A stretch of DNA of 38,186 nt from Leptospiraceae bacterium (GCA_016718635.1 JADKCW010000009.1:1-38186); one strand, 5' to 3'; positions 1 through 38,186 are shown, counted from the stretch's first letter. Notes: generated by a model from the letters alone, not told the origin. Numbers and translations are program-made.

Positions 1-19
1 CTCACCATTAAACACTTAG

Positions 20-123
20 GTCCAAACAATCGGGGAAGCAGAATCAACTTTTATGGTCTATGGAATGCCGAAAGTCGCAAAAGAAATTGGCGCATTAGAT
101 ATTCAACTTCCGGTTGATAAATA
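20..123 (+). pseudogene. C-terminal tail of a CheB-like methylesterase (fragment at the window edge, ends at a stop)
   Basis: Translation reads ...TIGEAESTFMVYGMPKVAKEIGALDIQLPVDK*. This parallels the C-terminus of the intact CheB at 28966..30045 (...TIGESEQSALIYGMPKVAYEIGGVEEQLP...). An in-frame stop lies just upstream, so only the tail is present in the window. Confidence 0.45.
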
Positions 124-169
124 GCATCACTAATACTAGGATTGATTTAGAGATGCACACAATTGTTTT

Positions 170-480
170 TGGGAAGATAGTTCCGTGCAAGATTTAATGC
201 TCGGGCGTATCTTGGGCGAAGGCCTTACTGTGTTTTGGAAAGAATGGAGCAGAAGCCTATGCGTTAGTCGGAGAGAAAAACCTTCTTTCTCATCATAACA
301 GACGTTGAGATGCCGGAACGTGAATGGTTTTGAACTCTGTCGAAAATTAAAAATAACGATGCCTTAAGGACATACCCGTTGTTATCTGCTCTTCTCTTTC
401 TAGACCGGAAGATATTGTACAGGCATCGAATGCGGTGCAGATGATTACGTCACCAAACCCTATGACAAAAGTATTTAATG
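170..480 (+). pseudogene. CheY-like receiver-domain response regulator, disrupted by multiple frameshifts
   Basis: Receiver motifs can be pieced together across three frames: ...GAEAYALVGEK.., ..LIITDVEMPERNGFELCRKLK.., ..NNDAL.., ..PEDIVQASNA.. and GADDYVTKPYD (read directly from ggtgcagatgattacgtcaccaaaccctatgac). No single frame is open across the domain. Confidence 0.5.
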
Positions 481-879
481 TATCGGTGGAGACGCTTCCT
501 AAATAATCCAATTGCAACTAATGAAGATGTTACTCCGATTAATATAAAATTATGCGGGGAAAAACTTTGAGATAGTAGCAGACCGTTTACATATTTAATG
601 TAGCTGGCACCTACCTACGAAAATTCTCTCAAGCAATACAATGAACTCGTAAGATACTCAAATTGAATAAAGAAATTAAACAAATCTTCCAGATCTGGGT
701 AAAAAAGAAACAGAAGAAGTGTTGTTAAATATTTTACTGGCTTGAGTAGCAAAGGAATTAAGGAGACCGGCAAAGCAAAAGCCGGTATTTTATGAAAGTG
801 CAGTATTCTATTTACGGACTTTAAAGGATTCACCAAATTATCAGAGAAATTTACAACGAAGGTGATTCTCAACTAGACT

Positions 880-1230
880 TAGTTTTTGTTATTTCGATTC
901 TATCATGCAAATCATAAGATTGAAAAGATTAAAACAATTGGTGGCTTTTATCATATTGTGCGTAGCCGTATTCGGAGAAAGACCCAAATCATGCGGTTAA
1001 TATCATTAAGGCGGGACTTGAACTGAACTACATGAACATCGTAAATACAATCAATTCCCAACAAGGGAATTCCCACCATGGGAAATTCGGATTGCCCCCA
1101 CCTCGATCCACTCGTCGCAGGAGTTGTAGGGAACGCTAAGAAATTCTGCTACTGATGTCTGGGGAGATTCGGTAAACGTTGCCAGTCGAATGGAATCTTC
1201 TGACTTTCCGGGCAAAGTGAATATTTCAGG
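880..1230 (+). pseudogene. Class III adenylate/guanylate cyclase catalytic-domain remnant
   Basis: Fragments across frames: ..KIKTIGGFYHIV.. (compare KIKTIGDAYM), ..PLVAGVVGNAKKFCY.. then, after an inserted base, ..DVWGDSVNVASRMESSDFPGKVNISG. This is the hallmark cyclase motif. An in-frame TGA falls inside the FCYDVWG motif. Confidence 0.45.
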
Positions 1231-34566: not shown

Positions 34567-37014
34567 ATGCAATCAAAGTTGAGATATTTATTTACAAGCA
34601 TTCTGATTTCTATGGCTTTCTACTTATTTGCCAAGATCGGTTTAAAAATTGCATCTATTCAATCGAATGTTACTTTAATTTGGCTTCCTTCTGGTCTGTC
34701 ACTTCCTGTTTTACTTTTCGGGGGTTACAAGTATTTGCCTGCAATTAGTATAGGAGCATTTTTTACAACCTATTCAACAGGTGCACCGATTGGTTTTGTA
34801 ATAGCCACTGTTATCGGAAATAGTCTTGAGCCTTTGTTCAGTGCCTATTTTTAAAATCCAGACTAGAGAATAACAAATATCCGCTTAGTCTAAAGAATGT
34901 TAGTATGTTCTTTCTGATTGCAATTATCATTGCGCCTACAATTAGTGCATTGATCGGAGTTCTAGGTCTATGTTTAAATGGCATGGTCGAATGGAATTCT
35001 TTTTTTTCAATTTCACTTGGTTGGTGGGCAGGCAACGCATTCGGTGTATTAACCTTAGGGCTTTGGTCTTCGCTTGGTTATCAAATTCGAATATTAATCC
35101 TACAAAATCTACTCTGCTCGAAGGATTCTCTCTTCTCATTCTATTGACCTTCACCCAAACAATTATTTATTTTGATCTTGTTTGGCCTATCGCCTCAATG
35201 TCTCTTGCATGGACTGCATTTCCATTTTTAATTTGGACTTCCATTCGATTCAATCATAAAATTACAGTAACCTTTACTTGCACAACAATAGCGATAGCGG
35301 TCTTTGCAACGATAAGCGGTAAAGGTCCACTCTTTACGGGATCAATCAATCCTAGCCTATTTCTGCTTTATGGATTTTCCAGTATTACAATGTTAAATTC
35401 GATGATACTGACAGCAATTGCATCTGAAAGAATTTTAAAAGAAAAAAGTCTAGCGCGTAATAACGAATTGCTCAGACAAACAGAAGAAATAGCAAGAATT
35501 GGGTCATGGGAAATGGATACGGTAACAAAGGAGCGCACTTGGACTGATGAAATTTTTAATATTCATGAAGTCCCGATCACGAAGTCTCCTCTTTCATTAG
35601 AAGAGGCTATTCAATTTTACCCTCTTCCAGGTAGATTAGTCCTACAAGCTGCCATGCAAAATGCTATAGAAGAAGGAGTTCCATACAATCTTGAATTACC
35701 ATTTATTACAAAGAGTGGTAGAAGTTTATGGATTCAAACGCAATGTAGAGTTATAAGAGTCAATGATAAAATTATAAGACTGATAGGAACTTTCCAAGAT
35801 ATTACTTTACGCAAAGAAACAGAAACGGAATTGATTAAAACAAAAGAAGCGGCTGAAGCGGCAAATCAGGCTAAATCGGATTTTCTTGCAAATATAAGTC
35901 ATGAATTACGAACTCCGTTAAATTCTGTAATAGCGCTAACAGATTTATTATTAAAATCTAAATTGAATGCATCACAAGAAAAAAATATGGCAATTGTTTT
36001 CAGTCTGCAAATTCATTGCTCGATTTACTCAATGATATATTAGATTATTCTAAAATTGAAAGCGGCCAGCTTGCTCTAAAGATCGAAAAAATAAAATTAA
36101 TAGAATTAGTTAATCAATCAATAAACACAATCAGATCCGCAGCCGATGATAAAACATTTCCATTCTAACTAACCTTGCTAAAAATCTACCTACTTATATA
36201 TGGATAGACTCTACTCGACTACGGCAAATACTAATTAACCTTTTGATTAATGCAATTAAATTTACCAATGCAGGAAGCGTTGAAGTAAAATTGAAGTTTT
36301 AAAATTTGATTCATCAATAAACCAAATGCAAATTCTTTTTCAGTCATTGATACAGGAATTGGAATTTCAGAAGAACATCAGAAAAGTATATTCGAACCAT
36401 TTATACAAGCACATCGTTCCACGACTAGACCTTATAAGGACATTGGTCTAGGACTTAGCATTTCGAATACACTCCTCAGGCTAATGAACAGTAAACTGAG
36501 ATTGGAAAGTGAATTAGATAAAGGAAGTAGATTCTACTTCATTCTAGAAACAAAAATAGAATACACAAATATTCATGAAGAAGTAGAGCATTCGTCTACG
36601 AATGAAAATTATAATAGTTTCTTTCCAGACTCAACTAACATTTCCAAAATCCTAGTTGTTGATGATGATCCAATCAATTTATTTTTAGTAAGGACAATCA
36701 TTCAAGAACTATTGCCAAATTCTAAATTGATTGAAGCAATGAATGGAAAAGAAGCCATTGATATATTTCAGAAAGAGAATCCTGACCTAATTATACTAGA
36801 TATACAAATGCCAGAAATGAATGGACTCGAAGCAACAATAGAGATTAGGAAGCTTGAAAAGGAAAAGCGAACACCTATCATCGCATTAACCGCAGGAACG
36901 ATGAAAGGGGATAAAGAGAAATGCCTCTCCATCGGTATGGATGATTATGCGTGCAAACCATTTGTAAAATACACAATTGCTAAACTATTATACAAATGGT
37001 TATTCAATCAATAA
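34567..37014 (+). pseudogene. Hybrid sensor histidine kinase (MASE1 membrane domain, PAS, HisKA, HATPase_c, C-terminal receiver) with at least five frameshifts
   Basis: ORFs 34567..34854 (MASE1 start ..TLIWLPSGLSLPVLLFGGYKYLPAISIGAF..), 34905..35147, 34970..36043 (more TM helices, PAS ..[39 protein letters not shown].., HisKA ..[21 protein letters not shown]..), HATPase pieces in other frames (..LLINAIKFTNAGSVEVKLKF.. / ..FSVIDTGIGISEEHQKSIFEPFIQA..DIGLGLSISNTLLRLMNSKLRLESE..), and the receiver in ORF 36484..37014 (..ILVVDDDPINLFLVRTII..LIILDIQMPEMNGLE..IIALTA..CKPF). Confidence 0.55.
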
Positions 37015-37734
37015 CTATTCAAATCCATTCATCTTTTGATAAAAATTGGTAGAATAGTCATTGTTTAGAATACAATTTATTTTAAAATCTGAGATTCCAG
37101 AGCGCGCTGCGGAATTTGTAACAATGTCATGAAGAATTCCCAAATCAAGTCCGAGTTTTTTTCCAAGAATAAGACCTTCCATATAAACTTGTGCAAGACC
37201 AGCTTGCATCATATTAAGGGTAATCTTCATTAGCTGCCCATTTCCAACATCACCACAATGAATGACTTTTTTACCACAGGCTTCCCAGATGAAATTGCAA
37301 TCCTGAAAGTCTTCTTGACTTGCTCCAACCATAAATAGAATTTCACCCTTATCAGCAGCCACTTGCTTCCAGTCATAGGAGAGTCTCAAAACGAAAACCT
37401 CTCTTGAGAGATTCATTGTGCATTTTCGCTGTTAGCCCAGGTGAACTCGTTCCAAAATCCAAAATAGTGGCATGTGTTGGTTCAGCCATTACTTCCATAA
37501 ATGATTTTTCTACAATATGGTCTTCAGTCAGACAGAGAATAATAAAATCAGCATTTTGCACTGCATCCTTAATTTCCGAATAAATGATAGTATTCGCATC
37601 TTGCAACTCTTGAATCTTAGAAGGATTACGCGCAAATATCTGTAAGGTCGCGCCTGTCTTCTTTAAGTTTTTACAAGCCGCGTCCCATAATCCCCACACC
37701 AATAAATGCAATTTTATTCATAATAATCTCCTTT
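37015..37734 (-). CDS. 3-hydroxyisobutyrate dehydrogenase / beta-hydroxyacid dehydrogenase family protein (two frameshifts)
   Basis: The minus-strand start MNKIAFIGVGIMG.. (from 37734) is the NAD-binding GxGxxG. It continues in ORF 37373..37711 (..FIILCLTEDHIVEKSF..ILDFGTSSPGLTAKMHNESLKRGFRF..) and ORF 37015..37416 (..VAADKGEILFMVGASQEDFQDC..GNGQLMKITLNMMQAGLAQVYMEGLILGKKLGLD..). Confidence 0.5.
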
Positions 37735-37805
37735 CGCATAATCAGAATTTATCGTTGTATGATTCAGACAACTCAAAAATACATTCGAAAGATTCATTAT
37801 CTTTC

Positions 37806-37859
37806 CGTAACTACTCAGTGTTTTGCCACAGAGGCAATCCATTATGTTGAGTAGTTACG
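37806..37859. promoter_or_regulatory. Perfect 12-bp inverted repeat with a 30-nt spacer in a divergent promoter region
   Basis: cgtaactactca (37806..37817) pairs with tgagtagttacg (37848..37859). TTGACA at 37874 follows. Confidence 0.25.
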
Positions 37860-37980
37860 TCTTTCTATGAATAAACATTTTATTGACATTTTATTAGAAA
37901 GGGGAAAAAGAATGAAATTAGTAAAATCTCTAAGAGGTACAACTTTATGAAATCATAACTATAAATAAACAGAACTTAGA

Positions 37981-38186
37981 AGAAGAGCATATTGTTGTTG
38001 TGCTATTGGGAATGATAAAAAAATCAAGCTAGAGCCAATTCAAAAAGATTGGATGAGAGATCGATTCAATGATGGTCTGATTTTCAAACGTTTTGACCAG
38101 AGAGGAAAGATCTTCATTGAATACATACCAATTGAAAAGTATGGAAGCCAATTGTTGGCAAAACTTTTATGGTTATCAATTGTCTT
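37981..38186 (+). CDS. Partial ORF running off the window end (product unknown)
   Basis: Open frame ..YCCCAIGNDKKIKLEPIQKDWMRDRFNDGLIFKRFDQRGKIFIEYIPIEKYGSQLLAKLLWLSIV.. with no stop before the window end. The start is unresolved and may lie in another frame upstream. Confidence 0.2.

Follow-up and report, generated by a model that had tools for sequence, protein, structure and literature searches.

Consensus sequences from Oxford Nanopore reads of the R9 type, including long-read metagenome-assembled genomes (MAGs), keep one-base homopolymer indels that lead to frameshifts, and bins of low coverage (<40-fold) require short-read polishing (Sereika et al. 2022, PMC9262707). A similar pattern was found in contig JADKCW010000009.1 (GCA_016718635.1), a stretch of 38,186 nt with about 36% G+C from a Leptospiraceae bacterium, hereafter the window, which carries two chemotaxis clusters together with neighbouring genes, many of them frameshifted. 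As in Nanopore consensus, the error rate in the window is set by run length and, by inference, coverage, the errors are absent from short-read assemblies of the same organism, and the assembly spans repeats that break short-read contigs. Unlike a typical polished Nanopore consensus, the window is far worse at its two ends, where the accuracy is roughly that of raw reads, pointing to near-single-read support beyond the usual systematic residue.

Host-restricted bacteria such as Leptospira borgpetersenii and Mycobacterium leprae show genome decay with many pseudogenes. The window resembles such genomes in that neighbouring genes are frameshifted in a member of Leptospiraceae. It differs from them in that its lesions are found in one assembly only and mostly consist of a single base lost from a short run, are accompanied neither by a load of substitutions nor by a relaxed ratio of nonsynonymous to synonymous substitution rates (dN/dS) in the chemoreceptor genes MCP1 and MCP2 nor by insertion sequence (IS) elements, and follow in density the ends of the window, not gene categories. 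The phase-variable contingency loci of Campylobacter, Haemophilus and Neisseria carry simple-sequence tracts of about 8 nt or more. As in these loci, frameshifts occur in mononucleotide runs of sensory or surface-related genes; in contrast, the affected tracts of the window are 4-6 nt long, show no length polymorphism among independent samples, and include intergenic and housekeeping-type tracts, which are equally affected.

We conclude with high confidence that nearly all the broken genes of the window represent consensus errors of an error-prone long-read assembly and not mutations. The lesions are private to the window, are of the type expected for such errors, and increase in a positional gradient. 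The platform was most likely Oxford Nanopore of the R9 type with little or no short-read polishing, and the source is best explained as a Leptospiraceae bacterium of a wastewater-type community; the nearest genomes are Leptospiraceae MAGs from activated-sludge-type samples. The preliminary description of this DNA offered two readings, long-read or pyrosequencing consensus error and real decay, and regarded the sequence alone as insufficient to choose. The error reading is strongly supported by the finding of the same genes intact elsewhere and of indels private to the window. Pyrosequencing, and likewise PacBio continuous long reads (CLR), are less likely in view of a raw-type error of about 10%, the excess of deletions over insertions and the contiguity across repeats.

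Same-population references, 97-99.98% identical to the window, were available over 10,752-22,997 and 24,269-38,186. They look like short-read assemblies, since the contig names are in SPAdes/scaffold style, 100-N gaps are present, and the contigs end inside the repeats of the chemoreceptor gene MCP3. The contigs used were L001, from the NCBI MAG GCA_018057905.1; L002, L007 and L008, ENA YUYA23-1 scaffolds from three samples; L003, L005 and L006, from Logan assemblies; L009, from a second NCBI MAG (GCA_016720625.1); L096-L098, three JGI metagenome contigs carrying the DNA of a relative; and L013, from a Leptospiraceae MAG of 79% identity, which served for synteny and frameshift positions only. 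The intact lengths in the references are 1021 aa for MCP1, 903 aa for MCP2, 415 aa for the HATPase protein of the che operon (che-HATPase), 802 aa for the hybrid histidine kinase (HK) and 289 aa for the dehydrogenase.

The interior lesions, between 10.75 and 37.0 kb, were scored as DNA-level differences between the window and the references (Table 1). The comparison of homopolymer lengths with independent, apparently short-read assemblies, which had been proposed in the preliminary description, gave 13 small indels private to the window and none private to L001, L002, L007 or L008 in three-way alignments of about 16 kb, and at the covered sites no small indel of the window was shared by any reference. 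Twelve of the 13 are losses of one base and the other is a gain of one base, all in A, T or G runs of 4-6. The frequency of error in the interior increased with the true run length, being 1/893 for 3-mers, 1/300 for 4-mers, 6/79 for 5-mers and 6/37 for 6-mers.

Phase variation or population heterogeneity at short homopolymers, switching the chemoreceptor and kinase genes so that the assembly caught 'off' alleles, would agree with the location of the interior lesions in A/T runs, several of them close to the 5' end of MCP2 or MCP1. The affected tracts, however, are only 4-6 nt, well under the lengths for which useful slippage rates are generally reported, and the changes are nearly all in one direction. 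Furthermore, L001, L002, L003, L007 and L008, which come from different samples, are concordant at every tested site, the intergenic tract at 17769 is affected as well, and signalling genes are not enriched once the tracts are counted (see below). An A6 site near 15467-15472 is shortened also in L009 (A4), but L009 does not carry the other lesions of the window. Altogether, phase variation is extremely improbable.

Real pseudogenisation, in which accumulated indels would be costing the strain its chemoreceptors, its hybrid HK, its dehydrogenase and the entire left gene block, finds support in the large number of lesions in signalling genes, but the affected genes are all intact in every other assembly of the population, and the private indels are confined to the window. 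MCP1 is intact in both L007 and L008, its two indels being private to the window, of compensating type and with an in-frame identity of 100%. MCP2 is intact in L007, L008 and L009, all three of which agree against the window at 17769, 17822, 18232 and 18321. Over 5,466 nt, L003 shows no mismatch to the window and a single gap (T6->T5 at 31090), and both L001 and L003 encode the intact che-HATPase. The dN/dS ratios were 0.06 for both MCP1 and MCP2, 0.03 for the intact gene of the major vault protein (MVP) homologue and 0.16 for the GAPDH-like gene, indicating that selection on MCP1 and MCP2 is not relaxed. Pseudogenisation is therefore highly improbable, also in view of the observations at both ends described below.

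The MCP1 homologue of L009 (1005-3737) is itself split into three open reading frames (ORFs) of 290, 70 and 471 aa, and the tract corresponding to 15467-15472 is A4 in L009, A5 in the window and A6 in the short-read scaffolds. L009 thus seems to carry assembly errors of its own, at partly the same tract as the window. We take L009 to be possibly a long-read MAG; in that case the A4 would be an artefact of the same sort.

The extreme unevenness of frameshift density noted in the preliminary description is far beyond chance and spans a more than 100-fold range. Counted against the nearest reference, the indel events per kb were about 34 in 1-4000, 16 in 4000-6000, about 4 in 6000-6762, about 1 in 6.8-10.1 kb, 0.65 in 10.75-22.99 kb, 0.1 in 24.27-34.8 kb, 2.7 in 34.8-37.0 kb and about 11 in 37.0-38.19 kb. 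The distance to the nearest window end correlated with the number of indels per 1-kb bin (Spearman rho = -0.62, p = 2e-5). Of the homopolymers of at least 5 bases, 1 of 45 was miscalled in 26.8-34.8 kb, 5 of 14 in 34.8-37.0 kb and 6 of 10 in the final 1.2 kb, a regional difference with Fisher p values of 0.002 and 6e-5, and the gradient continues through genes on both strands and through intergenic DNA, against the expectation from pseudogenisation. The cleanest block, 24269-34846, includes the C-terminal half of MCP3, CheW2, CheA, CheB, che-HATPase, CheY, MVP and orf76, with 31090 as the sole lesion; no private substitution was detected over 26-32 kb.

The genes listed as intact in the preliminary description proved to be so: CheA and CheW1 have exact protein matches on contigs of several other assemblies, and CheB (359 aa), CheW2 (162 aa), CheY (119 aa) and MVP (830 aa) have the lengths of the references. 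Its shift counts, in part given as ranges, were reproduced for MCP1 (two), MCP2 (three), MCP3 (one), che-HATPase (one), GAPDH-like (one), Uma2 (one) and YfcH (two), as was its figure of five or more for the hybrid HK, for which six were found; the dehydrogenase exceeds the one or two shifts assigned to it, and the gene of a 362-aa hypothetical protein and the UbiE remnant, which were not listed, are also lesioned. The clustering in signalling genes, taken there as fitting decay, reflects gene position and the number of A/T runs: among interior tracts of at least 5 bases, 6/62 were in error in signalling genes and 1/54 elsewhere (p = 0.12), and such tracts are few in the intact genes (CheA 11, CheB 7 and MVP 6), all of which lie within the cleanest block. 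Together with the correlation with distance, this indicates that the unevenness follows position, modulated by homopolymer content, rather than gene function. The non-homopolymer lesions, likewise taken as a sign of decay, are concentrated in the zones at both ends, with a joint rise of substitutions, insertions and deletions there. Since the lesions are almost all consensus errors and become denser towards both ends, they say little on which genes work, and the caution expressed there on every pseudogene call was correct.

For the left end, homologue searches found no near-identical reference for 1-5.7 kb; all they yielded at 94-96% DNA identity were two short contigs, L093 of 1.2 kb and L095 of 1.8 kb. 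A photolyase match, of which the apparent identity of 58% increased to 81% after correction of frames, led to the syntenic contigs L096-L098, in which the gene order is the same from CheB through UbiE and every gene is intact. A frameshift-aware protein-to-DNA aligner was written for the analysis; it recovered the exact DNA-level indels in GAPDH, MCP1, HATPase and HK, and two of the three shifts in MCP2, the shift at codon 4 being clipped. With this aligner, the five genes of the first 6.74 kb showed 85 frameshifts and 9 in-frame stops in total (Table 1), in agreement with the earlier remark that this part is unreadable without constant frame changes. The 14 shifts of the oxidoreductase were at the same positions against L013 and against L096. 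The photolyase is still 81% identical in frame despite 23 frameshifts, in disagreement with pseudogenisation.

When window 1-6762 was aligned with L096 as DNA, there were 592 mismatches and 170 indel events, of which 115 are deletions and 55 insertions, most of them away from homopolymers. About 135 of these events fall within 1-4000, both kinds being present and mostly outside homopolymers, with mismatches of about 10-13% per 500 nt. The 500-nt bins of 0-4 kb, covering the CheB C-terminus, cyclase, photolyase and most of the PAS HK, contain 14-24 indel events, insertions and deletions alike, with 46-70 mismatches in most bins; those of 4-6 kb, covering the HK end and most of the oxidoreductase, contain 4-11 events (32 in this zone, all deletions in the window); and those beyond 6 kb contain 1-2 events and about 12 mismatches. 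Zone 1-4000 is thus of raw-read quality, and zone 6001-10750 is the transition to polished quality. As controls, the more divergent segments 6852-7959 (78.5% identity) and 8661-10102 (81.6%) showed only 4 and 7 gap openings, respectively, against L096, and therefore true divergence fails to explain 25 gaps per kb further left.

Within the transition zone, L095 is 95.7% identical to window 5737-6762 with 5 indels, the N-terminal lesions of the oxidoreductase being at 6433, 6599 and 6751, and L093 is 96% identical to 6803-7995 with a single A5->A4 change at 7645 (GAPDH-like). The Uma2 lesion is at about 8291, and the YfcH shifts are at about 8849 and about 9253; the former is probably an A7->A6 change in the start-codon region, where the start reads ATGAATTATAAAAAATAG.

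A chimeric or strain-mixed contig, with ends from a rarer or different strain and mixed reads degrading the consensus, may be considered from the mosaic relatedness of the window: no private substitution occurs at 26-32 kb, 33-34 kb has 7 that are synonymous and 21-23 kb has 160, near-identical contigs exist for 10.75-38 kb while only references of 88-96% identity turned up for 1-10.7 kb, and the synteny with L007 breaks at 10752. However, the blocks of private substitutions at 21-23 and 33-34 kb are free of indels, so that strain divergence alone does not make frameshifts. YfcH, orf99 and UbiE are adjacent in L096, and therefore the parts of the window on either side of 10752 adjoin each other in a relative, the break there being explained by insertion of a toxin-antitoxin module into UbiE; a chimeric join at 10752 as the cause was rejected on this ground. 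Such a contig is unlikely, and would in any case be a variant of the artefact explanation, with low depth for the end segments.

Towards the right end, substitutions and indels private to the window, which are zero at 26-32 kb except for 31090, climb through 33-38 kb. Of the 8 substitutions in MVP that are private to the window, 7 are synonymous and 6 are transitions, and these look like real strain polymorphism. The hybrid HK (MASE1-PAS-HisKA-HATPase-REC) is intact in L002, the full-length alignment showing 97% identity with 6 shifts, and at each of the six sites L001 and L002 share a reading that differs from the window. In the three-way alignment, 14 of its 15 private substitutions are nonsynonymous, as pseudogenisation would predict. 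Eight private substitutions, mostly G>C and A>C transversions, are located within 45 nt (36397-36441) at conserved residues of the HATPase segment, possibly through a local fault in base calling, for example at a modified-base motif.

The last 1.2 kb (37015-38186) was aligned to L001 and L002, which are mutually concordant, and showed 13 small indels of mixed type over the dehydrogenase, intergenic DNA and the start of YoaP. The dehydrogenase carries 4 frameshifting indels, one 3-nt indel and a 128-nt deletion near 37040 (window 37015-37060 against L002 9985-10112). This deletion, at the 3' end of the gene, is flanked by imperfect direct repeats of about 24 nt and takes out about 43 codons but leaves the native stop in place; in L001 the corresponding position is occupied by a 100-N scaffold gap. 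Apparent indels at 37026 and 37037 were rejected as alignment artefacts around this single deletion. The 128-nt deletion may be a real strain polymorphism, and is the only lesion with mutation-like character; the look of a genuine mutation is in favour of pseudogenisation. On the other hand, indels against private substitutions were 6 to 15 in the HK and 13 small ones to about 13 in the last 1.2 kb, and in the left 6.76 kb the 170 events compare with the 592 mismatches, some of them due to true divergence. In neutral decay of bacterial genes, indels are generally reported to be a minor fraction, at indel-to-substitution ratios far below the 0.3-1 of the window, and relaxed selection cannot lift private divergence above the local synonymous level (about 0-3%).

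MCP3 is a 5.2-kb poly-HAMP receptor gene of about 1750 aa, read in the window as two overlapping ORFs in different frames (21335-24151 and 24130-26586). Frameshift-aware alignment placed its lesion near 24126, where one C is lost in GTC-CAT, and the motif AVNGVH-WL-DL reads through this junction in five homologues. Two arrays of 273-nt (91-aa) HAMP-type repeats, at 22208-23650 and 24269-25488, contain 5.3 and 4.5 copies with 86-87% matches, separated by a conserved linker. L007 ends at 22989 and L008 at 22997, and L001 begins inside the arrays; since short-read contigs stop there, no same-species reference covers the lesion. The C-deletion, which lies outside a long homopolymer as a genuine pseudogene mutation might, is by analogy most likely an error. 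In the N-terminal part (21000-22997), 160 substitutions but no indels are private to the window against L007 and L008; either this segment is diverged or recombined in the strain of the window, or the short-read references contain collapsed or mis-registered repeats.

Several points weigh against consensus error as the sole cause. Relaxed selection would also give the dN/dS of 0.5-1.1 seen for the private changes of the hybrid HK; this ratio, which departs from the low values by which the other genes speak against decay, comes from private changes that are clustered and rich in transversions, in a zone where quality is falling, and random substitution errors account for it equally well. The repeat-flanked 128-nt deletion is not a typical consensus error, and the MCP3 lesion is in a C-dinucleotide instead of a long run, at a place beyond the same-species references. 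None of the 14 interior runs of 7-8 bases was in error, which is slightly unexpected for Nanopore, the numbers being small. The references come from other samples and strains, so that any single indel could be strain-specific. Finally, the platform and the contig-end cause are both inferences. That a minority of lesions is genuinely strain-specific is distinctly unlikely; the best candidate is the 128-nt deletion, followed with lower likelihood by the MCP3 C-deletion or the six HK deletions.

Consensus error would operate along the window as follows. The window ends would be contig ends of low depth, and the drop in depth would cause the gradient. From about 6 to 35 kb, where depth would be adequate, only the systematic error of the platform would be left, that is, under-calling by one base of A/T (rarely G) runs, affecting about 8% of 5-mers and 16% of 6-mers. 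As this error is tied to runs, the chance of a gene looking broken scales with its length and number of runs. Towards the ends, homopolymer miscalls would first become more frequent, deletions would then occur everywhere, and finally insertions, deletions and about 8% excess substitutions would appear together as in a single uncorrected read, the pattern expected from depth dropping towards contig ends. The window spans the two 273-nt arrays where L001, L007 and L008 start or end, and was therefore built from long reads.

The remaining features are included in Table 1; a search of the window for tRNA and Rfam features found none. The MazE-MazF-like module (10163-10738) reads as one fused ORF of 191 aa with the junction TTAAAAATGACA, in which an ATGA overlap motif comes after an A5 run, and the fusion itself may be an artefact. 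A complete UbiE-type methyltransferase is present in L007 and L096, whereas only the C-terminal third (10735-11066) is left in the window, which looks like a strain-specific toxin-antitoxin insertion into UbiE. In L096 (16678-17392), gene calling splits the UbiE methyltransferase into two overlapping ORFs of 116 and 135 aa, which suggests a frameshift or error there too. Exact-protein look-ups gave no match for three ORFs in 9.8-12.2 kb, and these are either altered themselves or strain-specific. The MVP homologue, a bacterial relative of the eukaryotic major vault protein of 830 aa, is located directly downstream of the che operon, carries the Pfam domains MVP_shoulder and, weakly, Vault_3, is of equal length in L001 and L002, and evolves under strong purifying selection. 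At its left edge (1-1345, compared with L096 1-7969), the window carries the tail of the second chemotaxis cluster, which in the relative runs CheR-CheW-MCP-CheA/REC-CheB and ends with a fusion of response regulator (RR) and nucleotide cyclase; chemotaxis-type signalling would thereby be linked to cyclic-nucleotide output.

Table 1. Genes of the window with frameshift-aware alignment of the left-end genes to L096, and interior lesions (run length in the references -> run length in the window).
Feature	Position	Strand	Change	Frameshifts vs L096	In-frame stops vs L096	In-frame identity to L096	Alignment
CheB C-terminus	1-147	+		2	0	92%	
RR-cyclase (RR-adenylate/guanylate cyclase)	153-1345	+		23	1	84%	
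Photolyase	1391-2920	+		23	3	81%	
PAS histidine kinase (left-end HK)	2922-4539	-		23	5	85%	
VTT-domain/pyridine-nucleotide-disulfide oxidoreductase	4641-6740	-		14	0	95%	
GAPDH-like	6832-7958	+		1	0	78%	
Uma2	8102-8661	-		1	0	85%	
YfcH epimerase	about 8835-9736	+		1	0	89%	
Small membrane ORF	9801-10100	+					
MazEF-like ORF	10163-10738	+					
UbiE remnant	10735-11066	+					
UbiE remnant, lesion	10904	+	G3->G2				L007
362-aa hypothetical	11070-12157	+					
362-aa hypothetical, lesion	11164	+	A lost between T runs				L007; protein alignment over full 362 aa, 1 shift
HigBA	12579-13192	+					
cNMP-binding regulator	13312-13869	-					
MCP1	14684-17749	+					
MCP1, lesion	15239	+	A5->A6				
MCP1, lesion	15472	+	A6->A5				
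Intergenic, lesion	17769		A6->A5				
MCP2	about 17811-20520	+					
MCP2, lesion	17822	+	A5->A4				
MCP2, lesion	18232	+	A6->A5				
MCP2, lesion	18321	+	A5->A4				
CheW1	20531-21028	+					
MCP3	21335-26586	+					
CheW2	26599-27087	+					
CheA	27096-28976	+					
CheB	28966-30045	+					
HATPase protein (che-HATPase)	30038-31284	+					
che-HATPase, lesion	31090	+	T6->T5				
CheY	31303-31662	+					
MVP homologue	31759-34251	+					
orf76	about 34259-34489	+					
Hybrid HK	34612-37014	+					
Hybrid HK, lesion	34847	+	T6->T5				
Hybrid HK, lesion	35057	+	G4->G3				
Hybrid HK, lesion	35996	+	T5->T4				
Hybrid HK, lesion	36150	+	A5->A4				
Hybrid HK, lesion	36286	+	A5->A4				
Hybrid HK, lesion	36335	+	T6->T5				
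Dehydrogenase	37015-37721	-					
YoaP-like acetyltransferase gene, start only	from about 37946	+					

All pseudogene calls on the window, for the chemoreceptors, hybrid kinase, epimerase, Uma2, GAPDH-like protein, dehydrogenase and the left 6.7 kb, should be treated as unverified or withdrawn, the latter in practice for nearly all of them, and corrected protein sequences can be obtained from the matching short-read assemblies. As a rule, frameshifts rising in density towards window or contig ends, combined with one-base losses in interior runs of 4-6, indicate a technical cause. If a minority of the lesions were genuine after all, either the hybrid HK/dehydrogenase pair or one giant poly-HAMP receptor would be on its way out of this strain; biological readings such as the loss of signalling genes should not rest on patterns of this kind.

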